A stretch of 64,000 bases of DNA from Candidatus Magasanikiibacteriota bacterium (GTDB taxonomy: Bacteria > Patescibacteriota > Patescibacteriia > Magasanikbacterales > UBA922). The stretch covers positions 1,688-65,687 of the forward strand of contig JABIEQ010000010.1 of assembly GCA_018651085.1 (NCBI GenBank), written 5' to 3'. Below the pieces are notes generated by a model. It saw only the letters and a list, made by a program, of their open reading frames with translations, did not search any database and was not told the DNA's origin. Both the position numbers and the translations under genes were made by a program. This document shows, piece by piece, positions 9,477-54,491 of the stretch; within the stretch, counting starts at the first letter, position 1; each line of letters begins with the position of its first letter.

Positions 9477-9512
9477 AAAAAGACCTCCGATATACGGAGG
9501 TCTTTTTTTGTA
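9477..9512. terminator. bidirectional intrinsic terminator agacctccg-atata-cggaggtct
   Basis: 9-bp stem 9481-9503 flanked by A7 and T7. Lies between the convergent PBP and dnaN. Confidence 0.6.
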
Positions 9513-9518
9513 TCATCA

Positions 9519-10646
9519 TTACTGACGAATAGGCATGACTATGTATAAGTAATCTTCACGATTGTGTGGACGAAGCATACAGGGAGCATCACTACTATTC
9601 AAAAGAAAATCTCCTTTTTCTTCAAACTGAGATAATCCATCAAGGACATACCGATGATTCAATAAAATGGAATTTTCTTCTCCAGTTATTTCTACATCTA
9701 CTTCTGAGGCATGTTCACCTGTTTGTGTACTTGTTGACGAGACACCAATTGAACTGTTTTCCACGTTTAAATCAAACGACACGGCGTTTACCCCCATGGT
9801 TGTAAACAAACTTGCTGCTTTGATTTTTTTCTTTACGATGTCAACGGGAAATGTTGCTGTTGTTTTAAAGCTTTCAGGAATAATTTGAACATAATCTGGG
9901 TAGGTTCCATCAATAATGCGTGATGTCATCTGTATTCCCTGAAAAAGCATCGCAATTTGATTATCACTAATATGTAATTCAACAGTCATGTCTCCCTCCA
10001 TACCTTTTTGTGAAGAAATCAGTCTTGCCATTTCATACACGGTTTTAGCAGGGATAATACAAGTTACCGTATCAACTCCTCCAGCAAGGGACACTTTCTT
10101 TTCTGCGAGACGGTATGAATCCGTAGCAGCTAAAATTAAACCACTGTATCGTTCTGTTTTAAATCCCATGTACACACCAGAAAGTTCTGGTCGTATTTCA
10201 TTTTTAGCGGCAGCAAAGACCACACTAGAAAGCGCATCTCTAAATGGTGCTGCACTGAGGGTAAATGTTTGAGCTTCTTGGATTGCAGGGATAACAGGAT
10301 ATTCGTCAGCGGGGATGCCTTTTATTTTTGTACTTGAGCTTCCGCTTTTTACAAGGAGTTCATTTCCTTTAAGTGTTACGTCGACTTGTTCACTACCAAG
10401 AAGGTTTACATAATCTGTAAGCGTTTTTGCTGGAACAGTAAACGATCCTGTTTGTTCTATTTTTCCTCTGAGTGTTGTTTGTACGGCTATCTCTAGATTT
10501 GTACTAATAACTTCAATATGCGCTTCGTGCGCTTTTATTAAAATATTAGTGAGTATAGGGAGGTTCACTTGTTTCCCTGCAATACCACTTACTACGGTAA
10601 GTGCATGTGCTAAGTTTTCTTTGGTACACGTAAATTTCATATACAC
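9519..10646 (-). CDS. dnaN: DNA polymerase III beta sliding clamp
   Basis: 375 aa. MKFTCTKENLAHALTVVSGIAGKQVNLPILTNILIKA... has the three-domain clamp architecture. Sits immediately downstream of dnaA. Confidence 0.9.
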   Translation of the reverse strand: MYMKFTCTKENLAHALTVVSGIAGKQVNLPILTNILIKAHEAHIEVISTNLEIAVQTTLRGKIEQTGSFTVPAKTLTDYVNLLGSEQVDVTLKGNELLVKSGSSSTKIKGIPADEYPVIPAIQEAQTFTLSAAPFRDALSSVVFAAAKNEIRPELSGVYMGFKTERYSGLILAATDSYRLAEKKVSLAGGVDTVTCIIPAKTVYEMARLISSQKGMEGDMTVELHISDNQIAMLFQGIQMTSRIIDGTYPDYVQIIPESFKTTATFPVDIVKKKIKAASLFTTMGVNAVSFDLNVENSSIGVSSTSTQTGEHASEVDVEITGEENSILLNHRYVLDGLSQFEEKGDFLLNSSDAPCMLRPHNREDYLYIVMPIRQ

Positions 10647-10922
10647 AGGTTGCTTAAAGGTCTTTTCCTTTTCTTTTTATATATTAAATAGTAGTAGTAG
10701 TAAGGGAGTGGAAAAGTAGGATAACTGTTTTTTTCTTTCCTTCACCCAGCCAATAAATGAACTTATCCCCTTGTTTGCTGACTGTTATATGATTGGCATT
10801 TGTCTGTGGGTATGTTTTTTTCTTATTTTTTTGTGTGTGTATAAGTCGATGTTTTTCCACATGTGATGTCTTTGTTTATTGATGTTGCCCACATAGTTAT
10901 ACGTAGGATTATCCGCGAAAGA

Positions 10923-12338
10923 TTACACAGTGCGCGCTCTTTGCTTTATAAGTTCTAGCTCTTCACGCATTTTTGCACTCTCTTTTATAGCATTTTGAAT
11001 CTTTGTGTGTGCATGCATTGCTGTTGTATGATCTCTTCCTCCGAGTTCTTGTCCAATTGCAGGATACGACATCTTCAGTTCGTCTCGAAGAAGGAACATC
11101 GCGATTTGTCTTGGAAGTGATAATCTTTTTTCTCTACTTTTTCCTCTAATGTCTTCAAGGGTAATGTCGTAAAACTTTACAATAAGTGCTATAAGTTCTT
11201 TTGGTGTAAGGATCTTTTTAAGACTTGTACTTTCAAAGCTTGCAAGTATAGAGTTTACCGTCTCTTTGCTTGGTGATATATTTTTTAGTTCATGATATGC
11301 AATCACCTTGTTTAGTGCGCCTTCAAGTTCTCTAATATTACTTTTTACTTTTTCTGCAATGATTTGAATAATATTTTCTGTTAAACCATAATTTTTTTCT
11401 TGGCATTTTGATTGGAGAATGGCAGCTCTTGTTTCTAGGTCAGGTGCTGAAATGTCTGCAATCATACCCCATTCAAATCTGCTTCGTAGACGATCTTCAA
11501 GTGCAGGGATAGCTTTTGGTGGTCGATCACTTGTAAGGACGACTTGTCTTCCGTGTTGGTGAAGTTCGTTAAAGGTGTGAAAAAATTCTTCTTGAGTTTG
11601 TTCTTTTCCTCCTATAAATTGAATGTCATCAATTAAGAGCAGATCAACATTTCTATATCGTTCTTTAAATTCTTTTGCACGCCCTTCTTTTACAGAAGAC
11701 ACAAATTCATTGGTGAACTTTTCTGAACTCACGTAGAGAATTTTTGTGTTTGGGTTTTCTGTAAGCATTTGGTCAGCAATGGCTTGAAGCAAATGCGTTT
11801 TTCCAAGTCCTACCCCACCGTATATAAATAATGGGTTATAAGCGTCTCCTGGGCGATTTGCAACGGCTTTTGCAGCTGCGTGTGCTAATTCATTTTGTTT
11901 CCCTACAATAAAGGTTGCAAAAGTATACTTTTTATTTAACCCAAACTGTGATGCTGATAACGTTGAGCGTTGATTTCCTGGATTTCGTTGGTATTGATAT
12001 CCTTGTGGTTGTTGTGCTGCTGGTTGTGTTGGGGCTGATGTTGCTCGAATAGGGGCACTTATAACAGCTTCTTGTTCTTCGACGTGTTTGATGTTTCCTA
12101 CGTTGTACTCTACCTTCTTAATAGGTTTTGATGTTACTCGTTCAAGAGATTTTACAACGTCAGAGTGGTATTTCTTTTGGAGCCAGCTTTGTGTAAAGGT
12201 ATTTGGTACAATTATGATAACGTTTCCTTCAGTATATTCACTAATACCGGTGTGTTTAAACCAGGTGGTGAAGTTTGCTTTAGAAATAGAGAGTTCAAAC
12301 TCGGCGAGAACAGCTTGCCAGATTTCATGATTGGTCAT
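10923..12338 (-). CDS. dnaA: chromosomal replication initiator DnaA
   Basis: 471 aa. AAA+ Walker A GGVGLGKTHLL. C-terminal DNA-binding signature LGGRDHTTAMHAHTKI. Confidence 0.95.
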   Translation of the reverse strand: MTNHEIWQAVLAEFELSISKANFTTWFKHTGISEYTEGNVIIIVPNTFTQSWLQKKYHSDVVKSLERVTSKPIKKVEYNVGNIKHVEEQEAVISAPIRATSAPTQPAAQQPQGYQYQRNPGNQRSTLSASQFGLNKKYTFATFIVGKQNELAHAAAKAVANRPGDAYNPLFIYGGVGLGKTHLLQAIADQMLTENPNTKILYVSSEKFTNEFVSSVKEGRAKEFKERYRNVDLLLIDDIQFIGGKEQTQEEFFHTFNELHQHGRQVVLTSDRPPKAIPALEDRLRSRFEWGMIADISAPDLETRAAILQSKCQEKNYGLTENIIQIIAEKVKSNIRELEGALNKVIAYHELKNISPSKETVNSILASFESTSLKKILTPKELIALIVKFYDITLEDIRGKSREKRLSLPRQIAMFLLRDELKMSYPAIGQELGGRDHTTAMHAHTKIQNAIKESAKMREELELIKQRARTV

Positions 12339-12718
12339 AGATATGTGGAAAAAAGGAAGAAATTAGAGGTGAAATATGTGTGTAACCTCATTTTAGCACA
12401 AAACCTTTTTCTAAAAAATTGCTTTACTTAGCCAAAAGTTAGTAATATGGGGATAAGTTGTGCACAGTGTGGATAAGTGTCTCTTCGTTTGTGGTCATTC
12501 TTGTTTATGTGTAGGGCTTTTTTATTTTTTCGGAAAGGTTTGTCTGTCTTTTTGTTTTTTTTATTTTTTCCTTTGTTAAGAGAAAACCTTGACATATTTC
12601 CTCTTTTTCGTTATAGTGATATCGCTTTACAAGTGAGGTCGTGTCGCAAGAGTTATTTGTGATAAAGATCTCCATTTTTTAATATAAAGCGTTGCCGACT
12701 ATTCTATTTTTGTAATAT
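12339..12718. promoter_or_regulatory. divergent rpmH/dnaA intergenic region with DnaA boxes and AT-rich tract; candidate oriC or dnaA promoter
   Basis: Perfect TGTGGATAA at 12468-12476 and GGGGATAAG at 12449. T-rich tract at 12520-12580. Classic rpmH<->dnaA arrangement. Confidence 0.45.
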
Positions 12719-12988
12719 ATGCCTAAAAGAACATTTCAACCAAATCAACGTCGTCGTCGTAAAAAACACGGATTTCGTAAACGAATGGGTACGAAACAAG
12801 GGAAAGTGATATTAAAAAGACGTCGTGTTCGTGGACGTGATACGTTAACCGCTTCATGTGGACTTAGCCTAAAGCAACGTCGAAAGACTGGGCGCAAAAA
12901 AGGGCGAGTAAAGATTACCAAAAAATTTCATTCAAAACGACGAGTGAAAAAAGCGGTAAAGATGGCTGCAAAAGCAAAGAAATCATAA
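12719..12988 (+). CDS. rpmH: ribosomal protein L34 with unusual 44-aa Lys/Arg-rich C-terminal extension
   Basis: First 45 aa [46 protein letters not shown] form canonical L34. The ORF continues in frame to 89 aa. Confidence 0.8.
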
Positions 12989-13042
12989 TCAACGTAAAGA
13001 GCCTCGAAAAAACGGGGCTCTTTTGTTATACTTTTTACTAGT

Positions 13043-13423
13043 ATGGTACCAAGACAATATCGACTTAAACATAAAAAGGATTTTGATGCACTGTTTTCAG
13101 TGGGTCGTTTTGTTGGTGGTGATTGTGTACAGTTGAAAATATGGAAAATTAATTCGGAGACATTTCCAAAACGGAAGTACACGACAGATGATTTGAAAAT
13201 TGGTTTTGTTGTCAGTGTTAAGGTACATAAACGAGCGGTTATCCGTAATCGTATGAAACGTCGTATGCGAGAGGTTGTGCGCCTTATGTTAAAAGAACAG
13301 GCTCTGTTACCTGGATATTTAATTGCCGTTATGGCAAAGCCACAGATTGTTGATGCAACGTATGACGAAATTTCTGAATCAATTACTGCGGTGTTTCAAA
13401 AAGCTGGAATCGTAGTGTTATAA
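13043..13423 (+). CDS. rnpA: RNase P protein component
   Basis: 126 aa basic protein ...VSVKVHKRAVIRNRMKRRMRE... Lies in the conserved position after rpmH. Confidence 0.85.
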   Translation: MVPRQYRLKHKKDFDALFSVGRFVGGDCVQLKIWKINSETFPKRKYTTDDLKIGFVVSVKVHKRAVIRNRMKRRMREVVRLMLKEQALLPGYLIAVMAKPQIVDATYDEISESITAVFQKAGIVVL

Positions 13424-13427
13424 ATAT

Positions 13428-13691
13428 ATGCGTGTATTTCAACGGCTTCTTTTTTTTCCACGATATGTTTTTATGATATCTGTGAGGTTATATCAATTAT
13501 TGTTTTCTCCTGACCATAGTTTTTGGGCAAAAGATGCGTTTCCTGAAGGGTATTGTAAATTTTATCCGACGTGCAGTGAGTATGGTCATCAGGTATTTTT
13601 TAAATACGGTGTATTTCGTGGCGGTATAAAAACCGTGTGGCGAATTTTACGGTGTAATCCATGGTCAGCGGGTGGTATTGATAAACCGTAA
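13428..13691 (+). CDS. yidD: membrane protein insertion efficiency factor YidD
   Basis: YQLLFSP...CKFYPTCSEY...LRCNPWSAGGIDKP matches the YidD signature. Confidence 0.85.
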   Translation: MRVFQRLLFFPRYVFMISVRLYQLLFSPDHSFWAKDAFPEGYCKFYPTCSEYGHQVFFKYGVFRGGIKTVWRILRCNPWSAGGIDKP

Positions 13692-18321: not shown

Positions 18322-18409
18322 ACAGATATAGGGTTACAATATGGCTAGTAGTATATATAATTCTTTTTTTCTTTTCAAGTTGTGTGAGGGTTTACAGTTT
18401 TTTGTATAT

Positions 18410-18800
18410 AAAAAAGAGACGCCTATGGCGTCTCTCGAAGACTCTTTGGGAGTACTAGACTCCTATCTATCTACCTCAATCATTATTTGGGGCAAATACA
18501 TAGGAGCATAGCAACTTGCTACCAAAGACTCGTAAGCTCCTCTACCGCTTGCAATGGTGTAAAATCCCGACAGCACATATAAACATACTGTATAAGTGGG
18601 AAGGCACCTAAGTTTTGGGCTTTCCTCTTTAATCCACTCGTGTTTAACGTTTTATGTTTGTTTTATTTGTAGTGGAGTGGGATCAGTAAAAGGGGGGGCC
18701 CAAAAGAGAAGCAGTAGATGAGTCTACACGCTCATTACACTAGGTGTAAGAGTGTGGCTACATCCAGGTTGTTGAATGATCTGTATATATAATAACACTT
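18410..18800 (-). ncRNA. candidate structured ncRNA (identity unresolved) ending in an intrinsic terminator
   Basis: About 400 bp of GC-elevated sequence with no ORF above 60 aa. On the minus strand, hairpin agagacgcc-ata-ggcgtctct plus T6 at 18415-18445 terminates a right-to-left transcript. Conserved RNase P, tmRNA and SRP blocks could not be matched by eye. Confidence 0.25.
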
Positions 18801-18839
18801 TTTTGCTAGGTTGTCAATGGTGTGAGTTGCTTTTTGCCT

Positions 18840-19140
18840 ATGTGTAGCCTTTTTTTTCTTTATTTTTGGCATTTAAAAAAAGTATAGACTAGTCTATACT
18901 TTCATTTATTTGGTTGATTTATCCCCATTTTAGGGGAGTTTTACACAGAGTTATCCACAATGTATAGATTAGTCTATACAAATAGCCGATATATACTGTG
19001 AATATATCGTGTATAGCTTCTTTTGTTCCTGTTTATTTCTTGGGGATAGCTCTTTTTTCTCTTGTTTTCCACAGTCTTAGGTGGTTTTACACAGATTTAT
19101 CCCCTTTTGTAGAGAGTAGTGTATACAAACAGAGTTTTGC
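18840..19140. promoter_or_regulatory. cluster of DnaA-box-like 9-mers and 16-bp palindromes; candidate oriC or DnaA-regulated/titration locus
   Basis: TTATCCACA perfect at 18951-59. TTATCCCCA at 18919-27. TTATCCCCT at 19097-105. TTTTCCACA at 19065-73. gttttacacag appears twice, each adjacent to a box. Palindromes TATAGACTAGTCTATA (18883) and TATAGATTAGTCTATA (18963). AT tract at 18850-18880. Confidence 0.4.
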
Positions 19141-19189
19141 TCTTTTTTTATTGGAGGTATTTTTGTATACTATTGATATCTATTTTTAT

Positions 19190-19606
19190 ATGTCTATTCG
19201 ATTTTTTTTGGCGACAAAGGCTTTTATCTCTTATCAAGGGCAAATTCTGGTTCTTCGTGAATCCCCCTCTTATGAAGATACGAGCAATACTGGTTTTTAT
19301 GATGTGGTCGGCGGTCGGTTAGATCCCGGAGAACACTTCGGTGATGCCCTTACTAGAGAGGTATACGAGGAAACTGGATTAAAAGTAACGATGGGTCGTC
19401 CCTTTTTTGTGAATGAGTGGAGACCTGTGGTTCGAGGAGAACAATGGCACATCGTAGGTATATTTTTTGCCTGTGAGGCTGATAATCAGACTGTTGTGCT
19501 AAGTAAGGACCACGATGATTATAAATGGATTGATCCTAAAGAGTATAAACAAGAACACATTATAGAAAATTTGTCCTTTGCCTTTGATGCATATCTTACT
19601 CGTTAG
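19190..19606 (+). CDS. NUDIX hydrolase
   Basis: Nudix box GGRLDPGEHFGDALTREVYEETGL. Start set at ATG 19190. The ORF track 5' extension 18998-19189 is non-protein-like. Confidence 0.8.
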   Translation: MSIRFFLATKAFISYQGQILVLRESPSYEDTSNTGFYDVVGGRLDPGEHFGDALTREVYEETGLKVTMGRPFFVNEWRPVVRGEQWHIVGIFFACEADNQTVVLSKDHDDYKWIDPKEYKQEHIIENLSFAFDAYLTR

Positions 19607-20733: not shown

Positions 20734-23328
20734 ATGATCTCATGCTTGGAGGGTTCTCACACCCAAACATCTCATTTTTCTTTTATTTATCGTTGTCTGT
20801 TTGCAGGAATTGTATTTTCAATTGCTGTTTTTTTATTTTTACCTGGTATTTCTTTCGCTGCTGAAGAAGATTTTTCTGATGCTGTTATAGAAGATGCTAT
20901 TATTGATCATGAAGACTTGGGGGTTGAAGCGCCAACAGTTCTCCCTGATCAAAAAGTACGATATGGATTTAAACGATTTGGCCGATTTTTTCAAAAAACA
21001 CTCGCTACTGGCGAAAAGAAACAAGAACTTATTGAACAATTCGCTAATCAAGAACTTGCAGATGCCTCTTTGCTTCTTGAACAAAAAAATACTGAAGGGC
21101 GTGCTGTTAATGCTGCTGTAAAGGCTATTAAACGGGCACAAAAACAATTAGAGAACGTTGAAGTGAAAAATCCAGAGGCTGCAGGAAAGTTTCTTGGACA
21201 TGAAGTAGTTCGTCAAAAAGTATATGATCGTGTTCAAAGACAGTTACTTGATCATGCTCCTGCTGATGTAATTGATGATGCCTTTGAAAGCATTGTTAAT
21301 GCTAAAAAAGAAGCTGCAGAGTACGCAGCTCAAACACTTGGTTCAATTGAAGATCAAGAAGGACTACTTGAAGAAGTAGGACTTGTACTTGAAGATGCAA
21401 AAGGAAGTTCACTTAATGCATTTAAACAAGCTGAAGCGTTACAGTTTTTTGAAGATCATGCCTCTAAAAATAGGCGTGATTTTTTTGATAAAGCAAAAAA
21501 ACGTACTCTTGAACGGTTTGCTGAAAATATTCATGATGAGTTTGTAGGGGGAAATCGTGATATCGTTGATAGGTTTGAGCAGTATGCAAAAGAAATTCCA
21601 GGAGACGAGACAATCCATCTTGAAATTTTTGATACGTTGAAAACTGGTCTTGAAGAATATGATTTTCCAGAAGAAGTGCGAGGGAAAATTGAACAATGGA
21701 AAGATATTTCTGCAAGACGTCATGAACAGGATGCTGAACGTGCGGAAGACCGGTTTGGTGATGATATTGCACATAAAATTTATGAGCGTCGTTTAGAACG
21801 TTTCTCTGACTTAGGTAAAGAAGAAGTAGATGTGTCACGATTTCGTGTGCTTGAAGAACTTCGAACGAGAACTTCTGGAGAAGAAGGAAGAGTACATGCT
21901 GTGGTGCAAGCAGAGCATAAAAAAATGGCAGCAAAATTTAAAGCACAATTTACAGATGAAGGATCACAAAAACTTGCCGATAAGTTTCTTGAACTTTCTA
22001 AAAATCCTGATCCAACATCATTTGCTATTATTAAAGAGCTTGAAAAACAGTTAACTCCAGAACAACGAAAATTTGTTGATGCACTTGACCAACAATTAAA
22101 GCATGAACTTGTGCAACAACGAGCAGAACATGGGGCTTTGTTTGAAGATAAGTTTTTTTCTAATCTTCCTGAACATCAAGATATTTTGCAAGGGTTAGAA
22201 CGAGATTTTCGTGATCATCGTGAAGACTTTTTAGGACCAGCTGACTTATTTGCTTCTTTTGATGGACAAGAACCTCTTCCATTTGTTCAACGACCAGGGC
22301 AACTTGATCAATTTTTTCAAAAAGCATCTTTTGATCAGCAAGTTCGTATTCGACGTGAGCTTGAATCAATTGATGATCCTGAAGCATTTGATCATTTTCA
22401 AGGAAAGTTTGAAGGATTTGAAAATATTCCACCTGAATTTCAATTTTTACAAGGTACTTTTGATGTGAAACGTCGTCAAATTGAAGAACGTCGTCTTCAA
22501 GATAAAGAGGAAGAACATTCAAGAGATACTGAACAAGCTTTTGAAGTTCTTGAAGAAGAATATCGTCAAAAAATTGAGGGTGTTTTAGAAAAAGATCGTG
22601 AAGCTTTTGAACGTCAATTTAATGAAAAACGTAATAACTTGAAGGAACGAGAATTAAAGAATAGACAAGAGTTGTTTGAAGAACGAATTGGAGATAGATC
22701 ATCATTTGATCCATTTTGTGATGAACGTTGTCAAAAAGAGGAAGAACTTTTTATTAGACAACGGTTTGAACAAAATATTGATAATGATAGACGTCGTTTT
22801 GAAGAGGATCAAGATTTTTTTAGACTAGAAAGAGAGAGCCTTGGAGATTTTAATCGGTTATCTGATCAAGATAATGCTTTATTTGAAACACGAAAACGTG
22901 ATGGTACTGAAGGTCCAATTGTTGATCGTCATCAGATTATTAATATCCGAAAATCACCGTCGTCCTCTAGAGGTAGATTAGATCAAAGAGATTCAGATCG
23001 ACATCTCAACTCAGAGTTTGAGCCACCTCGTGATTTTTCAAATCTTCCTTCTAAATCGGAGCTTGAAAGACGGGGTGAATTTAAACAACCAACAGTTGAA
23101 GATCGCCGTGATGAATTTAAACAACCGAGGTTTGAAGATCGTCGCGATGAATTTAAACCAAAAGAACCATTAAGTAATGGTGATACTCGTTCAAAGGTAG
23201 ATTTTAATTTACCTGTGAACCCTCCAAAATTTGAACATAATACCACTGAAAACAAAGATCTTTTTGAAAGAGAGAAGCTAGAAGACGTTAATAGGCCCGA
23301 CTTTGGAGATTCGTTTAAAGGATTTTAA
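20734..23328 (+). CDS. large secreted, extremely charged (E/R/D/K/F/Q-rich) low-complexity protein with C-terminal tandem repeats
   Basis: 864 aa. N-terminal signal-like FAGIVFSIAVFLFLPGISFAAEE. Long runs such as EERRLQDKEEEHSRDTEQAFEVLEEEYRQKIEG. Three tandem EDRRDEFKQP repeats near the C-terminus. Confidence 0.7.
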   Translation: MISCLEGSHTQTSHFSFIYRCLFAGIVFSIAVFLFLPGISFAAEEDFSDAVIEDAIIDHEDLGVEAPTVLPDQKVRYGFKRFGRFFQKTLATGEKKQELIEQFANQELADASLLLEQKNTEGRAVNAAVKAIKRAQKQLENVEVKNPEAAGKFLGHEVVRQKVYDRVQRQLLDHAPADVIDDAFESIVNAKKEAAEYAAQTLGSIEDQEGLLEEVGLVLEDAKGSSLNAFKQAEALQFFEDHASKNRRDFFDKAKKRTLERFAENIHDEFVGGNRDIVDRFEQYAKEIPGDETIHLEIFDTLKTGLEEYDFPEEVRGKIEQWKDISARRHEQDAERAEDRFGDDIAHKIYERRLERFSDLGKEEVDVSRFRVLEELRTRTSGEEGRVHAVVQAEHKKMAAKFKAQFTDEGSQKLADKFLELSKNPDPTSFAIIKELEKQLTPEQRKFVDALDQQLKHELVQQRAEHGALFEDKFFSNLPEHQDILQGLERDFRDHREDFLGPADLFASFDGQEPLPFVQRPGQLDQFFQKASFDQQVRIRRELESIDDPEAFDHFQGKFEGFENIPPEFQFLQGTFDVKRRQIEERRLQDKEEEHSRDTEQAFEVLEEEYRQKIEGVLEKDREAFERQFNEKRNNLKERELKNRQELFEERIGDRSSFDPFCDERCQKEEELFIRQRFEQNIDNDRRRFEEDQDFFRLERESLGDFNRLSDQDNALFETRKRDGTEGPIVDRHQIINIRKSPSSSRGRLDQRDSDRHLNSEFEPPRDFSNLPSKSELERRGEFKQPTVEDRRDEFKQPRFEDRRDEFKPKEPLSNGDTRSKVDFNLPVNPPKFEHNTTENKDLFEREKLEDVNRPDFGDSFKGF
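23060..23170 (+). repeat. three imperfect tandem ~33-nt repeats (EDRRDEFKQP units) inside the charged protein gene
   Basis: cggggtgaatttaaacaacc.. / cgccgtgatgaatttaaacaaccg.. / cgtcgcgatgaatttaaacca. Confidence 0.6.
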
Positions 23329-24109: not shown

Positions 24110-24150
24110 TATAAAAAAGAGACTAGTATATACTAGTCTCTTTTATTAAA
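24110..24150. terminator. bidirectional terminator aagagactagtatatactagtctctt
   Basis: Perfect stem between the convergent VIT gene and TrmB paralog. Confidence 0.55.
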
Positions 24151-24897
24151 TAAATGGTCAAAAATGGCATGTTGTTGGTCAGCGATATCTTTGTGTTTTA
24201 TATACACTCCACCAGGAAGTTCTCCTACACTTAAAAATATGACAACATCTTCGTAGATGTATGAAGCGGTATTTGTTTTAAAATCTTTTAGGGTTTTTCT
24301 TTCTCGGAGGTGCTCTGTTTTTTGTAGTGTGTTTGTCGGTTCTTTTTTTAAAGAACTTGGGCAGTCTTCTCCTCTAATAAGTTTTACAGTAATATTTTTT
24401 TTTGCTCTTTTTTCTAGATGTGCATGAAATATGGTACTAATTTCTTCGTTTTCCATGTACACGGAGTATGATTTTAATTCTTTTGGTTCATCAAGGATTA
24501 TTTTTTCTAGAACTTGTCTGATTCCTTGTATGCCTGGATAATTTTTAAAAAATGGGTCATTATTAATTTTACTGTAAGCTGCTTCAAGTGTTCCAAAGTG
24601 TTCTTCGAGTTTTTTTTCTGTCTCTATTAATGCTTTTCTTTTTTTGTAGAGAAATTCTTTGAGATTTTCAGGATGGGTAATAGTGTAGTGGAGCACTTTT
24701 TTTTGTGGATTTTTATAGATGAGCGTATGCTCTTCTAGCCAATCACAAATATTATAGATAGTCCCTTTTTTAAGGGATGTTTTTTTTACGATGTTTGCAA
24801 CCGTTAATTCTTTGTGTTCAAAAATAGTCGTGTACACACGTATTTGTTCTTGTTGCAATCCAAGAGTTTGTAATGTTTCAATAATTTCTTTTTTCAT
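24133..24897 (-). CDS. TrmB-family transcriptional regulator (paralog)
   Basis: N-terminal LGLQQEQIRVYTTIFEHKELTVANIVKKTSLKKGTIYNICDWLEE is a TrmB-type wHTH. Confidence 0.6.
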   Translation of the reverse strand: MKKEIIETLQTLGLQQEQIRVYTTIFEHKELTVANIVKKTSLKKGTIYNICDWLEEHTLIYKNPQKKVLHYTITHPENLKEFLYKKRKALIETEKKLEEHFGTLEAAYSKINNDPFFKNYPGIQGIRQVLEKIILDEPKELKSYSVYMENEEISTIFHAHLEKRAKKNITVKLIRGEDCPSSLKKEPTNTLQKTEHLRERKTLKDFKTNTASYIYEDVVIFLSVGELPGGVYIKHKDIADQQHAIFDHLFNKRD

Positions 24898-25147
24898 GTC
24901 TTTTTGACAAAAAATAGATGATACTGCTTCTAGTTTATCATTTTGTCAGTGTTTTTTGAAATATTTTGTGGATAACCCACTGTTTTGTCTGTTTATATTT
25001 GACTAAAATTAACCTATGTATAGCTAATTTTATTAATATTTCAAATCTATTTGACAAAAAGACAGTTCTTTTTCATACTAAAGAGGCGCTATTTTGGTAG
25101 AGCACTATACTTTATGAAGGGTTTTTGTTGAATATTGTCGTCGATAT

Positions 25148-26526: not shown

Positions 26527-27558
26527 TTAATCGTTTGGGACCTGTTTATTAAGGTGGGTATAAGCAAGAAGGGTCGCTTTTCTCCCTCGAGGTGTTCTTT
26601 CAAGCATTCCTGTCTGAAGAAGGTATGGTTCATATATTGTTTCAAGTGTATCCATATCTTCTGCCACAGCTGCCGCAATAGTGCTTAGTCCTACAGGTCC
26701 TCCTTGAAACTTTTCAATAATCGTCTCCAGGATGAGATAATCTACCGCATCAAGCCCCTCTGTGTCAACCTGAAGAGTCGTAAGAGCTTCATGTGCGATG
26801 TCTTTGGTAATTGTTCCATTGTGGCGTACGTCAGCATGGTCTCGTACGCGTCGTAAGAGCCTATTAGCGACTCTTGGCGTCTTTCTTGACCTATGAGCAA
26901 TGGTTTCCTCAGCACCGCCTTCAAGCGGCGTATTAAGGATAAGAGCGTTTGTCTTTATGATTGTCTCAATATGACTGTTTTCGTAGAATTTGAAGTGGAA
27001 AACATGGCCAAAACGGTCTCGAAGTGGTCCTGAGATTAGATTCATCTTAGTTGTGGCCCCAATAAGGGTAAATGGTTCAAGGGACATACGTAATGTTCGT
27101 GCTGTAGGTCCTTTTCCAACAATGATATCAAGAGCAAAGTCTTCCATTGCACTATAGAGTACTTCTTCAATAGTTTTGTTCATTCGATGGATTTCATCGA
27201 TGAATAGGACATCTCCGTACTCAAGGTTCGAAAGGATAGCCGCAAGATCTCCAACACGTTCTAGTGCTGGTCCTGCTGTTATTCTAATGTGTGCATCCAT
27301 TTCTTTTGCAATAATGTGTGCGAGTGTTGTTTTCCCAAGGCCGGGATTTCCATATAATAGTACATGCTCAATTGGTTCTTTTCTTTTTTCTGCTGCTTGC
27401 ATGGCGATATCAAGAGGCTCTTTGATGTGTTGTTGCCCAATAAACCCCTCAAGTGTCTTTGGGCGAAGGGTTCGTTCAATCTTTTTTTCTTCTTCTTTCT
27501 CTTCTTGATCGGGATTTACGATTCTTTCTGTGTGTTGTGAGGTATTTATTGGATTCAT
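26527..27558 (-). CDS. ruvB: Holliday junction branch migration helicase RuvB
   Basis: Walker [22 protein letters not shown]. Sensor and arginine-finger regions. C-terminal winged helix. No ruvA adjacent. Confidence 0.9.
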
Positions 27559-27667
27559 AGTGGTCGGTAGTATACATGTCGATTTATCTTATCTCAAGAA
27601 ATATATTGTTTTTTTTGCGTGGGTTTCTTTTTTGTGTATACGAGTGGGGATGGTGATTGGGAACGAA

Positions 27668-27829
27668 TGTGGATAACTTATTGGTTTGTATATTTTATGG
27701 CTCTTTTAAGAGAAAAATGCATTTGTGGTCCGTATGAAACTTGTGTGGTATAATAATACTCGTTCGATCATTACCTTACTAAACACAATATATAGTGGTT
27801 TAAATATATTTGAACCACAATATATTGTG
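27668..27829 (+). promoter_or_regulatory. nrdAB control region: DnaA box, extended -10 and tandem NrdR boxes
   Basis: TGTGGATAA at 27668-76. tgtggTATAAT near 27748. NrdR-box-like palindromes acacaatatatagtgg (27782-97) and ccacaatatattgtgt (27814-29) with 32-bp spacing. nrdA ATG at 27910. Confidence 0.5.
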
Positions 27830-27909
27830 TTCAACATATTTCTGTTGAATGCGGTTGCGCTGGGTTTTGGCGTTTTTTTTATCCTTTTATTTATTTTCTG
27901 CCTTGTCAT

Positions 27910-30681
27910 ATGTCACCAACTACGTTTTTACAAAAAATTCGTAAACGAAACGGAGCGATTGTCGATTTTTCTTCTGAGAAGGTCATGAAAGCCATGAAAA
28001 AAGCATTTTTAGAAGTGCGTGGTGGCGTTGATGAATTAAAAATGGCGAGCATGTCTGAACATGTTATTCGTCATCTTGAAAAATCTTTTGGTGAGGATGC
28101 TGTGCCTTCAGTTGAACATGTACAAAACACTGTTGAGAGTGTATTGATGGAAGAAGGGTACTATGATGTTGCAAAAGCGTACATCATTTATCGGTATCAA
28201 CATGAAAAAGAACGAGCACAAAAGAAACAAGAGGTGATAGAGAAAATTGAACAAGATGGATTGTTCGTTACGAAACGTAATGGACAACGAGAACGATTTT
28301 CTGATGAAAAATTAAGAGAGTATCTTACGCGATTTATTGGTGGATTTGAAAATGTTATTGATGTTGAAATGCTTGTAAAGCAATGTCGAGTAGAATTATT
28401 TGAACATATTACAACAAAGGAAATTTCTCAGGCACTAGCTCTTGTTACTCGCGCATGTATTGAACAAGATCCTGCGTATTCAAAGGTAGCCGCTCGTATT
28501 GTGCTTGATATGCTCTATAAAGATGCTATTAGTGGTGAATTAGAGTATGAACGCTTTGAAGAACAATACAGAGCAGCATTTAAAACATATATTTATAAAG
28601 GTGTTGAGCTTGGTCGTCTTGATCCACGGATGCTTGTGTTTCCACTTGACGAGTTAGCTGCTCGCATGGATATTGCTCGGGATGATTTATTTGATTACAT
28701 TGGTATTCAGACGTTGTGTGATCGATATTTTGTTCGAGACCCAAATACAGGTCAACTGTTTGAAACACCGCAATTTTTCTTTATGCGTATTGCGATGGGG
28801 CACGCAATTTTAGAAAAAGATAAACTTGAAACGACGACAAAATTTTATGAAATCATGTCTACTCTTCGATACATGAGTTCAACACCAACATTGTTTCATG
28901 CTGGTCTTACGAATCCACAGCTTAGTTCATGTTATTTAACGACAGTAGAAGATGATTTACAGCATATCTTTAAATGTCTTGGAGATAATGCTCAAATGTC
29001 TAAATGGTCAGGTGGACTTGGAAATGATTGGACTAACCTTCGTGGAACTGGTGCACAAATTAAAACAACGGCTGTTGAGTCTCAAGGTGTTATTCCATTT
29101 TTAAAGATTGCGAACGATGTGACTGTTGCTATTAACAGAAGTGGAAAACGCCGTGGGGCAACGTGTGCGTATCTTGAAACATGGCACATTGATATTGAAG
29201 ATTTTATTGAGCTTCGTCGAAACACTGGAGATGAACGGAGAAGAACTCATGACATGAATACATCAAATTGGATTCCTGATTTGTTTATGAAGCGTGTGAG
29301 AGAAGATGGTCAATGGACATTATTTTCTCCCGATGAAACTCCTGATTTACATCATATTTATGGTTCAGCTTTTGAAGAACAATATATTCGGTACGAACAA
29401 ATGGCAAAAGAGGGACGAATTCGTTTGTTTAAGACGATAAAGGCAAAAGATTTGTGGCGGAAAATGATTTCAATGTTATATGAAACAGGACATCCATGGA
29501 TTACTTTTAAAGATCCGTGTAATGTTCGTTCACCACAAGATCATGCTGGTGTTATTCATAGTTCAAATTTGTGTACAGAAATTACGCTTAACACTTCTTC
29601 TGAAGAAACTGCGGTATGTAATTTAGGATCGTTAAACCTTGATCGACTAGTAGTAAACGGTGTGCTTGACGAAGGACTTGTTAAAGACACCGTGAAGACT
29701 GCAATGCGGATGCTTGATAATGTTATTGATATTAACTTTTATCCGACAAAAGAAGGGAAGAAATCAAATATGCGACATCGTCCAGTTGGGCTTGGTGTTC
29801 GTGGGTTTCAAGATGCTTTGTATTTACAAGGAATTAATTTTACGTCAGACGAGTGTGTTGAATTCGCTGATTCGAGTATGGAAATGATTTCGTACTATAC
29901 GATTCTTGCTTCAAGTGATCTTGCTCGTCAACGAGGGGCATATAGATCATTTAGAGGATCAAAATGGGATCGTGGTATTTTGCCACTTGATACATTAGAT
30001 TTGTTAGAAAAAGAGCGTGGAGAGAAGATTCACGTGTCTCGTACGAGTCGATATGATTGGAATGAAGTGCGATCATCGATTAAAAAGCATGGTATGCGTA
30101 ATTCAAACTGTATTGCCGTTGCGCCAAGTGCTTCTACTGCAACATTGTGTGGATGTTTCCCAACGATTGAACCTATCTATAAAAATTTATACGTTAAATC
30201 AAATATGAGTGGGGAATTCACGGTTATTAATAAGTATCTTGTTGAAGATTTGAAGAAATTGAATTTGTGGAATGCTGAAATGGTTTCTCAACTTAAACAA
30301 CATGATGGAAGTGTGGAACACATTACTGTTATCCCACAAAATTTACGAGAGAAATATAAAGAAGTATTTGAAGTTGGTCCACAATGGCTTATCAAAGCAG
30401 CCGCTCATCGTGGTAAATGGGTTGATCAGAGTCAATCATTGAATGTCTTTTATAAAGGAAGTTCAGGGAAAGAATTATCTGACATTTATTTTTACGCATG
30501 GTCTATGGGACTTAAAACCACCTATTACCTTCGGACTATGGCTGCGTCACATGTAGAAAAAAGTACTGTGAATCTTAATGTTGCTGGTGAAAGTAATGCT
30601 TCTAGTAGATTGATGGCAACGACTGGACCTGTGAAAGCTTGTGCTATTGATGATCCTACGTGTGAAGCATGTGAATCATAA
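27910..30681 (+). CDS. nrdA: class Ia ribonucleotide reductase alpha subunit with N-terminal ATP-cone
   Basis: 923 aa. ATP-cone KRNGAIVDFSSEKV. Catalytic NLCTEI and PSASTA-like blocks. C-terminal CEACES redox Cys pair. Confidence 0.9.
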   Translation: MSPTTFLQKIRKRNGAIVDFSSEKVMKAMKKAFLEVRGGVDELKMASMSEHVIRHLEKSFGEDAVPSVEHVQNTVESVLMEEGYYDVAKAYIIYRYQHEKERAQKKQEVIEKIEQDGLFVTKRNGQRERFSDEKLREYLTRFIGGFENVIDVEMLVKQCRVELFEHITTKEISQALALVTRACIEQDPAYSKVAARIVLDMLYKDAISGELEYERFEEQYRAAFKTYIYKGVELGRLDPRMLVFPLDELAARMDIARDDLFDYIGIQTLCDRYFVRDPNTGQLFETPQFFFMRIAMGHAILEKDKLETTTKFYEIMSTLRYMSSTPTLFHAGLTNPQLSSCYLTTVEDDLQHIFKCLGDNAQMSKWSGGLGNDWTNLRGTGAQIKTTAVESQGVIPFLKIANDVTVAINRSGKRRGATCAYLETWHIDIEDFIELRRNTGDERRRTHDMNTSNWIPDLFMKRVREDGQWTLFSPDETPDLHHIYGSAFEEQYIRYEQMAKEGRIRLFKTIKAKDLWRKMISMLYETGHPWITFKDPCNVRSPQDHAGVIHSSNLCTEITLNTSSEETAVCNLGSLNLDRLVVNGVLDEGLVKDTVKTAMRMLDNVIDINFYPTKEGKKSNMRHRPVGLGVRGFQDALYLQGINFTSDECVEFADSSMEMISYYTILASSDLARQRGAYRSFRGSKWDRGILPLDTLDLLEKERGEKIHVSRTSRYDWNEVRSSIKKHGMRNSNCIAVAPSASTATLCGCFPTIEPIYKNLYVKSNMSGEFTVINKYLVEDLKKLNLWNAEMVSQLKQHDGSVEHITVIPQNLREKYKEVFEVGPQWLIKAAAHRGKWVDQSQSLNVFYKGSSGKELSDIYFYAWSMGLKTTYYLRTMAASHVEKSTVNLNVAGESNASSRLMATTGPVKACAIDDPTCEACES

Positions 30682-30708
30682 TTTGTTTTGATAATATATT
30701 TTATAGAT

Positions 30709-31719
30709 ATGAATAAGGCTGGTATTTTGAACAATTCAACTATTGATCCAAATAAAATTCTCCCGATGCGATATCCCTGGGCGAGAGAATATTATAAAAC
30801 AGGAGTGAATAATAACTGGGTACCTGAAGAAGTTCCAATGATGGATGATATTGAATTATGGAAAAAATCTCCAGAACGAGGGGGATTGACACCAGAAGAA
30901 CGACGAATGATCCTCTGGAATTTAGGATTTTTCTCTACTGCTGAAAGTCTGACGGCAAATAATATTGTCTTAGCAGTGTATCGTCATGTGACAAACCCTG
31001 AATGTCGTCAATATTTGCTTCGTCAGGCGTTTGAAGAAGCAATTCATACGGACATGTTTATCTATTGTAGTGATTCCTTGGGGCTTGATCCTGATGAAAT
31101 TTACTCAATGTATGAAAGTGTTCCATCAATTAAAGCAAAGGATGATTTTGTCATTGGTATGACTTCATCAATCATGGATCCAAACTTTAAAACAGATACA
31201 ACAGAAAATATTCAGAAATTTATCCATGATTTATTTGGGTATTACGTGATTATGGAAGGAGTGTTTTTTTATGCTGGGTTTGCGATGATGTTGCAACTTT
31301 TGCGTCAGCAAAAAATGGTTGGTATTGGAGAACAGTTTCAATACACCCTTCGTGACGAATCAGTGCATTTAGCATTTGGGTCTGATCTTATTAATACTAT
31401 TGTACAAGAAAATTCTGAAGTGTGGACTGATTCATTTAAACAAGATTTAGCTGATAAAATGAAAGTAGCTGTTGATTTAGAAGATGCGTATGCACAAGAT
31501 TGTTTGCCTCGTGGAATTATGGGAATGAATGCAGAAATTATTAGGCAATATCTCGAGCACATTGCTGACAGACGACTTGAACGTATTGGCTTAGAAAAGA
31601 TTTATGGTGCTACAAATCCATTTCCTTGGATGAGTGAAATTATGGATCTTAAAAAAGAAAAGAATTTCTTTGAGACGCGTGTCACAGAATACCAAACTGC
31701 AGGAAATTTGGACTGGTAA
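30709..31719 (+). CDS. nrdB: class Ia ribonucleotide reductase beta subunit
   Basis: Ferritin-like diiron ligands FEEAIHTD and RDESVHLAF. Radical-site FYAGFAMM. ATG 30709 chosen; the ORF track starts at TTG 30688. Confidence 0.85.
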   Translation: MNKAGILNNSTIDPNKILPMRYPWAREYYKTGVNNNWVPEEVPMMDDIELWKKSPERGGLTPEERRMILWNLGFFSTAESLTANNIVLAVYRHVTNPECRQYLLRQAFEEAIHTDMFIYCSDSLGLDPDEIYSMYESVPSIKAKDDFVIGMTSSIMDPNFKTDTTENIQKFIHDLFGYYVIMEGVFFYAGFAMMLQLLRQQKMVGIGEQFQYTLRDESVHLAFGSDLINTIVQENSEVWTDSFKQDLADKMKVAVDLEDAYAQDCLPRGIMGMNAEIIRQYLEHIADRRLERIGLEKIYGATNPFPWMSEIMDLKKEKNFFETRVTEYQTAGNLDW

Positions 31720-53921: not shown

Positions 53922-54109
53922 ATTTTACCATATATATAGGTATAAAGGGAATTCGGGATGGGTTCCCTCTATATATAGGTGTATATATCTCTTTATAAGT
54001 GGACATTTTGTGGATAATTTTATAAATCGTCAGGCATAAATGCCATTTTTTGCTTAATGTAGCTTAAATTGACATTTTTTCTTGACAAAGTTCTATCCAC
54101 CTGATCTAT

Positions 54110-54138: not shown

Positions 54139-54491
54139 AAGCCCATTCAAAAGTAGTCCCTCTTTTCGTTACTTCTATTAAAGATAGTGAGAAGAGTAAC
54201 TATTTGCACCGTTTATTTTATTGTGCGCCTTTTTCTTCTGTTCCGGCTACGTGTCTGTAATGGCAACTGCTTTACTATATATAGTGTATAGTGTCGTAGT
54301 GAGTGACTCCTTGGTGCGCGTTTGGCATTATATTCCATGCGCCTTTTATTGAGTCAGTACAACTAGTTTCTCATACAAACGGCTATTAAGCTGGATTTTT
54401 TGCTGTCTGTAGTTCTTTTTAACAAGAGATGCACGAGATGATGTCTTTACATAGATACGTCGTTTCTTTTTTCTTTTGTTCTTAATTCCTT

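Follow-up and report, generated by a model that had tools for sequence, protein, structure and literature searches.

The promoter of nrdAB in this uncultured member of Candidatus Magasanikbacteria (Patescibacteria/CPR) probably receives two regulatory inputs, one through an NrdR operator and one through a DnaA box. The 351-bp spacer between ruvB and nrdA holds a DnaA 9-mer, an extended -10 element and two 16-bp palindromes, and the positions originally predicted for these elements (both boxes, the extended -10 and the DnaA 9-mer) are correct to the base (Table 1). By the window we mean the whole 64,000-nucleotide stretch of DNA that was analysed; within it, ribonucleotide reductase (RNR) is represented by class I only, as an nrdA-nrdB operon. 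The NrdA start, MSPTT, is conserved in the related locus L079, and nrdB has an alternative TTG start at 30688.

Table 1. Elements of the nrdAB control region and the genes discussed with it (positions are those of the window).
Feature	Position	Strand	Evidence or remark
dnaA, candidate trans-acting factor for the DnaA box	10923..12338	-	Pfam DnaA_N, Bac_DnaA, Bac_DnaA_C; DNA-binding domain IV intact
ruvB, divergent neighbour	26527..27558	-	Pfam; own promoter-like site at 27597-27569 (promoter scan)
Perfect DnaA box	27668..27676	-	Exact 9-mer match; TTATCCACA on - strand, TGTGGATAA on nrdA strand
Predicted extended -10 promoter element, TGgTATAAT	27746..27754	+	Within invariant island TTGTGnTATAAT, three-way alignment
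Putative NrdR box 1, ACACAATATATAGTGG	27783..27798	.	1 mismatch to ACACWATATATWGTGT; in register in L079 and L096
Linker between boxes, 16 bp, TTTAAATATATTTGAA	27799..27814	.	Palindromic in this genome; sequence not conserved in L079
Putative NrdR box 2, CCACAATATATTGTGT	27815..27830	.	1 mismatch to ACACWATATATWGTGT; in register in L079 and L096
Small hairpin in nrdA leader, rich in G+C and trailed by 8 consecutive T	27857..27881	+	Terminator-like match; might be an attenuator or a stem-loop of the leader
nrdA, class I ribonucleotide reductase large subunit, N-terminal ATP-cone	27910..30681	+	Pfam ATP-cone, Ribonuc_red_lgN, Ribonuc_red_lgC; NCBIfam NF005544, 1283 bits
nrdB, ribonucleotide reductase small subunit	30709..31719	+	Pfam Ribonuc_red_sm; NCBIfam NF005550; 336-aa gene call in MAG

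We are confident that the tandem palindromes constitute an NrdR operator, a reading supported by their agreement with the consensus, their critical positions, their linker, their location before RNR genes and their phylogenetic footprint. Their proposed match to the NrdR-box consensus, acaCwAtATaTwGtgt, was borne out with a single mismatch in each box, and the bases C4, A6, A8, T9, T11 and G13, mutation of which weakens or abolishes NrdR binding (PMC13584703), are present in both (12 of 12). The predicted interval of 32 bp from start to start, or three helical turns, is likewise correct and applies equally from centre to centre; the resulting linker of 16 bp falls within the dominant class of 15-16 bp among NrdR sites, which tolerate 14-17 bp or, alternatively, have linkers of 24-27 bp (PMC12051234, PMC13584703), lengths at which the box centres are spaced by whole helical turns (PMC12051234). 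A chance origin of the boxes is excluded: no box with one mismatch or fewer occurred in 300 Markov-1 random windows, and relaxed tandem pairs had a mean of 0.007 per random window. No tandem pair other than the one upstream of nrdA occurs in the window and 20 kb of flanks. Two other matches were discounted, these being a third NrdR-like box at 54272-54287, which is probably due to chance because it has no partner box, and a box-like match at 8937, with three mismatches, which falls within a PBP gene.

The closest NrdA relatives found by searching two contig collections, L079 and L096, are 75% identical, and when their spacers are compared with that of the window the invariant islands are TTGTGnTATAAT and both boxes, which keep the same 32-bp register, while the rest of the spacer has diverged. 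Over the six boxes in these three loci the six critical positions do not vary at all, and 8 of the 10 other positions do. This pattern bears on an alternative explanation, that the palindromes are mainly a nucleic-acid structure, either a leader RNA hairpin or a DNA cruciform, with control over pausing, translation or the stability of the mRNA. The sequence from box 1 through the linker to box 2 would indeed fold into a near-perfect RNA hairpin of 48 nt (dG -24.6 kcal/mol, z = -7.1), the nrdA leader as a whole has z = -4.9, and in L096, where the hairpin has z = -5.3, a change from T-A to C-G relative to the window keeps position 7 of box 1 paired with position 10 of box 2. However, the long hairpin is lost from L079 (z = -1.8) while the six bases critical for NrdR are retained there, the invariant columns are the positions of protein contact and not arbitrary paired columns, and any two near-consensus NrdR boxes will be partly complementary by construction. 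Nor does any Rfam family match above gathering scores anywhere in the window, the leader giving only sub-threshold matches to miRNA hairpins. We therefore consider it very improbable that structure is the main role of the palindromes.

As an operator for NrdR, the box pair would act from a position downstream of the promoter. The boxes (27783-27830) do follow the string tgtggTATAAT (27744-27754), which contains the extended -10, as had been proposed; transcription of nrdAB is predicted from this element to start near 27761, so that box 1 would span about +22 to +37 and box 2 about +54 to +69, and the boxes lie 80-127 bp upstream of the nrdA start. A promoter scan returned a second, weaker promoter-like site between and within the NrdR boxes (TTTAAA-16-TATATT, 27799-27826), which was set aside because it is not conserved in L096. 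The spacer is common to nrdA and the divergent ruvB. Further into the leader, L079 and L096 have G+C-rich hairpins in the corresponding position, of different sequence, a comparison of three sequences only; a riboswitch or other known leader RNA was set aside, since nothing exceeded the Rfam gathering scores.

No nrdR gene was detected in the window by regular expression, tblastn or HMM searches, or within 10 kb beyond either end, making about 84 kb covered in all. The original prediction was therefore right that nrdR is not nearby, but its presentation of this as an oddity does not hold; the lack of nrdR there is unremarkable because nrdR adjoins nrdA in only 4 of 160 related loci (directly upstream in L006, L013, L017 and L019) and because NrdR is common in CPR, with 8000 matches at E<=1e-10 in a profile search of a protein collection, some of them named from Doudnabacteria or Patescibacteria MAGs. 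Among the 120 matches listed from that search there were close relatives of the Doudnabacteria-like query only, and three proteins considered as the NrdR of the window organism (P0082, P0068 and P0022) were rejected, as they belong to other organisms. The window organism presumably encodes nrdR elsewhere in its genome, and the arrangement would then resemble that of E. coli, in which we take nrdR not to adjoin nrdAB either.

The failure to find nrdR in the 84 kb searched could also be read in favour of another regulator with an operator that happens to resemble NrdR boxes, and candidates are at hand in the TrmB-like proteins encoded nearby, by TrmB-family genes at 24133-24897 and 626-1762. Yet the palindromes fit the definition of an NrdR site completely, with 16-bp boxes, all six positions, a 16-bp linker and a location ahead of RNR genes, and the same motif precedes nrdA in lineages that are unrelated, among them Simkaniaceae, Peribacteria and Gracilibacteria. 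We regard this explanation as extremely improbable.

The second input would be provided by the DnaA box. A perfect box had been reported roughly 80 bp further upstream and was found 81 bp before TATAAT, which is about -93 to -85 from the predicted start. We lean towards a regulatory role for this box at nrdAB, a reading supported by comparison with other loci, in which the box is kept by relatives, is enriched, co-occurs with NrdR box pairs and tracks nrdA. The organism also encodes DnaA with its DNA-binding domain, and its use of the canonical box is indicated by the 6 perfect copies in the window and by groups of such boxes ahead of dnaA and between dnaA and dnaN. There is also precedent, for control of nrdAB by DnaA is, as the original prediction had it, established in E. 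coli, and it has been proposed in B. subtilis and Caulobacter (PMC8203912).

The principal competing explanation, which we judge unlikely but not negligible, accepts the NrdR operator and holds that the DnaA 9-mer does not regulate nrdAB, being instead a titrating site near the origin, a site belonging to the divergent ruvB, or a product of chance. The box is single, with no other at one mismatch or fewer in the 351-bp spacer, and several boxes near or overlapping the core promoter, of the kind present at E. coli nrdAB and dnaA, are not found there; the box is separated from the predicted nrdA start by about 90 bp and from the ruvB -35 by about 75 bp. The window is, moreover, origin-proximal and rich in DnaA boxes, having 6 perfect 9-mers where 0.83 are expected (none of 100 shuffles reached 6). 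Against this, 27 of 126 distinct nrdA upstream regions carry a perfect DnaA box, mostly with a co-directional upstream neighbour other than ruvB and without dnaA or dnaN nearby, and perfect boxes occur at 0.586 per kb in non-coding DNA upstream of nrdA but at 0.054 per kb in other non-coding DNA, an enrichment of about 11-fold (Poisson P about 1e-8, with loci treated as independent though they are related). The distance to the -10 cuts both ways; it differs between the window and its relatives, but all three of these Magasanikbacteria-like loci possess a perfect box, and in L079 and L096, themselves diverged, the interval to TATAAT is exactly 117 bp in each. Since ruvB is the upstream neighbour in L079 alone among the 160 related loci searched, and none of the related loci contains dnaA or dnaN, the DnaA box follows nrdA and not ruvB. 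The possibility that DnaA boxes upstream of nrdA are a mere part of oriC was rejected on the same absence of dnaA and dnaN.

The association between the two kinds of site also favours a regulatory DnaA box. Tandem NrdR pairs lie upstream of nrdA in 8 of 77 and 10 of 74 related loci, and control DNA amounting to 399 kb and 344 kb contains none. Of the 126 regions, 16 carry tandem NrdR boxes, and in 12 of these 16 a perfect DnaA box is present as well (odds ratio 19, P about 1e-6, where loci or clusters are treated as independent despite being phylogenetically related). In other modules of this NrdA clade (L023, L078, L157, L161 and L165, with others) a perfect DnaA 9-mer stands upstream of tandem NrdR boxes as it does in the window; these modules differ from the Magasanikbacteria-like trio in the distance from the DnaA box to box 1, which is only 27-48 bp, against 115-142 bp in the trio, where the -10 separates the two; some of the modules also have the DnaA box in the opposite orientation. 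Under the scan used, about 87% of related loci have no tandem pair, and the module is therefore not universal in the NrdA clade. With the balance close to even, we tentatively suggest that a DnaA box with tandem NrdR boxes could be a conserved two-input module of nrdA promoters across many Patescibacteria/CPR lineages and others that possess this NrdA clade. A literature search returned no paper naming NrdR together with CPR taxa.

In the mechanism that we propose, for which we infer binding of NrdR at the boxes and of DnaA at the 9-mer, an NrdR tetramer carrying dATP plus ATP/ADP would bind both boxes and bend the DNA, and the bound tetramer would block initiation or promoter escape at nrdAB, by analogy at each step with S. 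coelicolor and E. coli. With little dATP present and only ATP bound, NrdR would exist in non-binding oligomers and nrdAB would be expressed. DnaA, whose gene is 15 kb distant, would occupy the one high-affinity 9-mer, some 90 bp before the start, and might thereby match nrdAB transcription to the state of replication initiation.

The nrdAB operon of E. coli offers a close comparison. Its functional NrdR boxes 1 and 2 are located downstream of the -10 and start site and are separated by a 15-bp linker (PMC12176259), and its DnaA boxes are upstream of the promoter, where DnaA activates or represses according to its nucleotide state and level (PMC8203912). The window shares with it a class I operon, NrdR boxes downstream of a start that is here predicted, and an upstream DnaA site; it differs in the length of the linker (16 bp against 15 bp), in having one perfect DnaA box at about -90 where E. 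coli has three near the -35, one of them specific for DnaA-ATP, and in giving no sign of other factors, whereas Fis, IciA and H-NS act additionally on the E. coli promoter. In S. coelicolor, two 16-bp partially palindromic boxes are bound by one NrdR tetramer loaded with dATP/ATP, as seen by cryo-EM (7P3F), and C4 and G13 are critical (PMC9110341, PMC13584703). The window resembles the S. coelicolor nrdRJ and nrdAB sites in its paired, partially palindromic 16-bp boxes with C4 and G13, although its boxes are AT-rich and nearer to the consensus, and nrdR, which in S. coelicolor is co-transcribed with nrdJ and autoregulated, is lacking from the 84 kb around them. Listeria monocytogenes, in nrdDG and the proximal nrdAB site, likewise has paired boxes 16 bp apart in the promoter region of RNR genes, spacers of 14-18 bp being bound most tightly (PMC12051234); however, Listeria nrdAB has two box pairs, which overlap the RNA polymerase site, and the window has one, downstream of the predicted -10.

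Judged from its sequence and that of related loci, the nrdAB control region of the window is a well-supported but ordinary example of the known circuit of NrdR and DnaA, and it reveals no new mechanism. It does provide a clean, near-consensus candidate operator, with a 16-bp linker and a phylogenetic footprint, from the uncultured CPR radiation, where to our knowledge almost nothing is known of transcriptional regulation. This suggests that reduced genomes may keep both of the controls on DNA precursors that operate in E. coli, NrdR responding to dATP/ATP and DnaA to replication status. That DnaA and NrdR boxes recur together at many nrdA promoters is a comparative finding of modest weight, and it could be of use in predicting DnaA regulons. 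If the conserved module is real, coupling of dNTP synthesis to both the dATP level and the status of the initiator would be ancient, and would have been kept even in genomes of about 0.9 Mb.

The predicted operator upstream of nrdA has the sequence features of an NrdR site, in which two boxes of defined sequence stand in a fixed register. The original prediction had described two palindromes, an extended -10 and a DnaA 9-mer in this region, and all are present in the 351 bp between ruvB and nrdA exactly as it set out (see table); nrdA and nrdB, to judge from their domains and family matches, encode a class I ribonucleotide reductase. Each palindrome differs from ACACWATATATWGTGT at a single position, in agreement with the proposed match to the NrdR consensus, and the two begin 32 bp apart, as had also been claimed, leaving a linker of 16 bp. 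No box with one mismatch or fewer occurred in 300 first-order Markov random windows; relaxed tandem pairs arose in these at 0.007 per window, and box 1 and box 2 form the sole tandem pair in the window and its 20-kb flanks.

Features of the ruvB-nrdA region, the dnaA region and the DnaA boxes of the window
Feature	Position	Strand	Remarks
dnaN	9519-10646	minus	
DnaA boxes	10836, 10853		dnaA-dnaN spacer; 1 mismatch each
dnaA	10923-12338	minus	
DnaA boxes	12344, 12448, 12468		upstream of dnaA; 12344 and 12448 with 1 mismatch, 12468 perfect
rpmH	about 12720-12986		
rnpA	13043-13423		
DnaA boxes	18919, 18951, 19065		18951 perfect, others 1 mismatch
DnaA box	24967-24975		perfect; upstream of TrmB-like regulator gene
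ruvB	26527-27558	minus	upstream neighbour of nrdA across spacer
DnaA box TGTGGATAA	27668-27676		perfect 9-mer
tgtggTATAAT	27744-27754		contains extended -10 TGgTATAAT, 27746-27754
NrdR box 1 ACACAATATATAGTGG	27783-27798		
NrdR box 2 CCACAATATATTGTGT	27815-27830		
nrdA	27910-30681		ATP-cone, lgN and lgC domains; NCBIfam NF005544, 1283 bits
nrdB	downstream of nrdA		NCBIfam NF005550
DnaA box	54009-54017		perfect; ftsK-rpoB spacer
DnaA box	60058-60066		perfect; inside rpoC

The NrdR site has been defined biochemically as two partially palindromic 16-bp boxes with 15-16 bp between them, in which C4, A6, A8, T9, T11 and G13 are strongly conserved; substitutions at C4/G13 or A6/T11 reduce binding or eliminate it (PMC13584703). 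Single boxes are not bound (PMC12051234; PMC13584703), and the spacer must be 14-17 bp, or one helical turn longer (PMC12051234). Both boxes here possess all six critical bases and are separated by 16 bp, and because this fit to the definition is complete it is very unlikely that the palindromes are the target of some other regulator, for instance the TrmB-like proteins encoded close by. Elsewhere in the window, a lone NrdR-like box (TTACTATATATAGTGT, 54272-54287) lies 205 bp upstream of rpoB and retains the six critical bases with two mismatches; it has no partner at 30-34 or 40-43 bp and is probably a chance match, since NrdR does not bind single boxes (PMC13584703).

Comparison with the closest retrievable relatives, the loci L079 (identical to L135) and L096, whose NrdA is 75% identical, provides a phylogenetic footprint. 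Their upstream DNA is mostly unalignable with the window outside three invariant islands: TTGTGnTATAAT and the two boxes, which keep their 32-bp register. Among the six boxes of these three lineages, the invariant positions are the six critical ones together with A3 and T14, while eight of the ten non-critical positions vary; the chance that eight randomly placed invariant columns of 16 would cover all six critical positions is 45/12870 (~0.0035). With box 1 close to being box 2 in reverse complement and a palindromic linker between them, 27783-27830 forms a 48-nt near-perfect dyad with a strong predicted RNA fold (dG -24.6, z = -7.1); a rival reading is that the boxes and linker act as RNA structure. 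This hairpin is common to L096 (z = -5.3), but L079 lacks it (z = -1.8) while keeping every NrdR-critical base, and no known leader element in Rfam is matched, so any structural role is at most secondary. A separate, small G+C-rich hairpin occurs 3' of box 2 in the nrdA leader (window 27857-27881, L079 2928-2950, L096 2410-2440), differing in sequence among the three; in the window and L079 a run of T comes after it. It is a possible attenuator or leader stem-loop, with too few sequences (three) to judge covariation.

Beyond these relatives, the tandem pair is found upstream of nrdA in 8 of 77 usable loci from species reference genomes and at 10 of 74 nrdA loci from JGI metagenomes, and nowhere in the remaining 399 kb and 344 kb of locus sequence respectively. 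The lineages concerned include Paceibacteria-like bacteria, Peribacteria, Gracilibacteria and Simkaniaceae, so the motif is the NrdR box in general rather than a variant confined to this locus.

A perfect DnaA box recurs in the same setting. The ruvB-nrdA spacer contains one, with no second box of one mismatch or fewer; L079 and L096 also carry one, each exactly 117 bp before TATAAT, as against 81 bp in the window. In non-coding DNA upstream of nrdA the density of perfect boxes is 0.586/kb, compared with 0.054/kb in the rest of the non-coding DNA (Poisson P ~1e-8). When similar upstream sequences were collapsed into 126 distinct nrdA upstream regions, a perfect DnaA box was present in 27, a tandem NrdR pair in 16 and the two together in 12 (odds ratio 19, Fisher P ~1e-6), although these tests ignore phylogenetic relatedness and so overstate significance somewhat. 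Of the related loci, L079 alone has ruvB next to nrdA on the upstream side, and none contains dnaA or dnaN, so the box is linked to nrdA rather than to ruvB or a dnaA-adjacent origin. In seven other loci (L023, L078, L114, L157, L159, L161 and L165), including some from G+C-rich lineages, a perfect DnaA box lies 27-48 bp upstream of box 1, and L114 has two upstream of nrdA; the pairing thus recurs within this NrdA clade, with lineage-specific geometry.

The window as a whole has six perfect DnaA 9-mers against 0.83 expected, a number reached in 0 of 100 shuffles, and five of the six lie between real genes. Canonical boxes cluster upstream of dnaA and in the dnaA-dnaN spacer, and the organism therefore uses the standard DnaA box. 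This region (8000-13500) resembles a replication-origin neighbourhood, with a GC skew sign change at ~8-12 kb. An 870-bp gene-free stretch (18322-19190), flanked by a DksA/TraR-like gene on one side and a NUDIX gene on the other, has three further boxes, repeats of 'ttttacacagaNttatccNca' and two copies of the palindrome 'gtatagaNtagtctatac', and matches no Rfam family. The stretch may be another cluster of DnaA-binding sites, may belong to oriC or may encode an unannotated RNA. An ORF of 864 aa at 20734-23328, which the gene calls of the MAG also include, is without a match in Pfam or NCBIfam. At the window start or just beyond it (flank L086, 14955-15803) are a transposase gene of the IS1595 family and two additional genes for TrmB-like regulators.

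As originally noted, there is no nrdR nearby: none was found in the window or in the 10 kb beyond each of its ends, a span that takes in nearly the whole 87.8-kb MAG contig. That contig is JABGSG010000013.1 of assembly GCA_018647845.1; an 863-kb contig carries the same proteins, and the 90% cluster of its RpoC has members named Candidatus Magasanikbacteria, which places the organism in the CPR/Patescibacteria. This is not unusual, because nrdR is directly upstream of nrdA in only 4 of 160 related loci (L006, L013, L017 and L019). Some CPR nrdR genes instead directly precede a class II nrdJ-like gene with a TSCPD domain (L090-L095, L180-L183) and others stand alone (L176-L179), so its genomic context is variable within CPR. 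A published survey reports NrdR from 77% of bacterial genomes (PMC13584703). It is also abundant in CPR: our search gave 8000 matches at E<=1e-10, some named from Doudnabacteria or Patescibacteria MAGs. That the boxes are under purifying selection in three lineages indirectly supports the existence of a protein that binds them.

The extended -10 is conserved in the window and its relatives, with the NrdR boxes 18-28 nt downstream; a start of transcription near 27761 is inferred, from which the boxes would span roughly +22 to +69. A second, weaker promoter-like sequence within the boxes was rejected, not being conserved in L096. Recent work on E. coli nrdAB placed the functional boxes 1 and 2 beyond the -10 and the start of transcription (PMC12176259). 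DnaA control, invoked in the original prediction, is indeed established there and has been put forward for B. subtilis and Caulobacter (PMC8203912). Here too, in a Magasanikbacteria genome, the boxes are 3' of the -10 and predicted start, in the early transcribed region with DnaA upstream; unlike E. coli, there is a single distal DnaA box, the NrdR boxes are near-consensus and there is no evidence for further regulatory inputs. We found no literature naming NrdR together with CPR taxa, and while the kind of arrangement is well known, this instance and the DnaA/NrdR recurrence in the NrdA clade appear undescribed. On balance we favour a regulatory role for the DnaA box at this nrdAB, whether activating or repressing. 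In S. coelicolor and E. coli, NrdR loaded with ATP only forms oligomers unable to bind DNA, whereas a rise in dATP yields a dATP/ATP-loaded tetramer that occupies both boxes and represses the RNR genes (PMC9110341; PMC12176259). By analogy, the nrdAB operon described here would be subject to the same dATP/ATP-dependent repression by NrdR.
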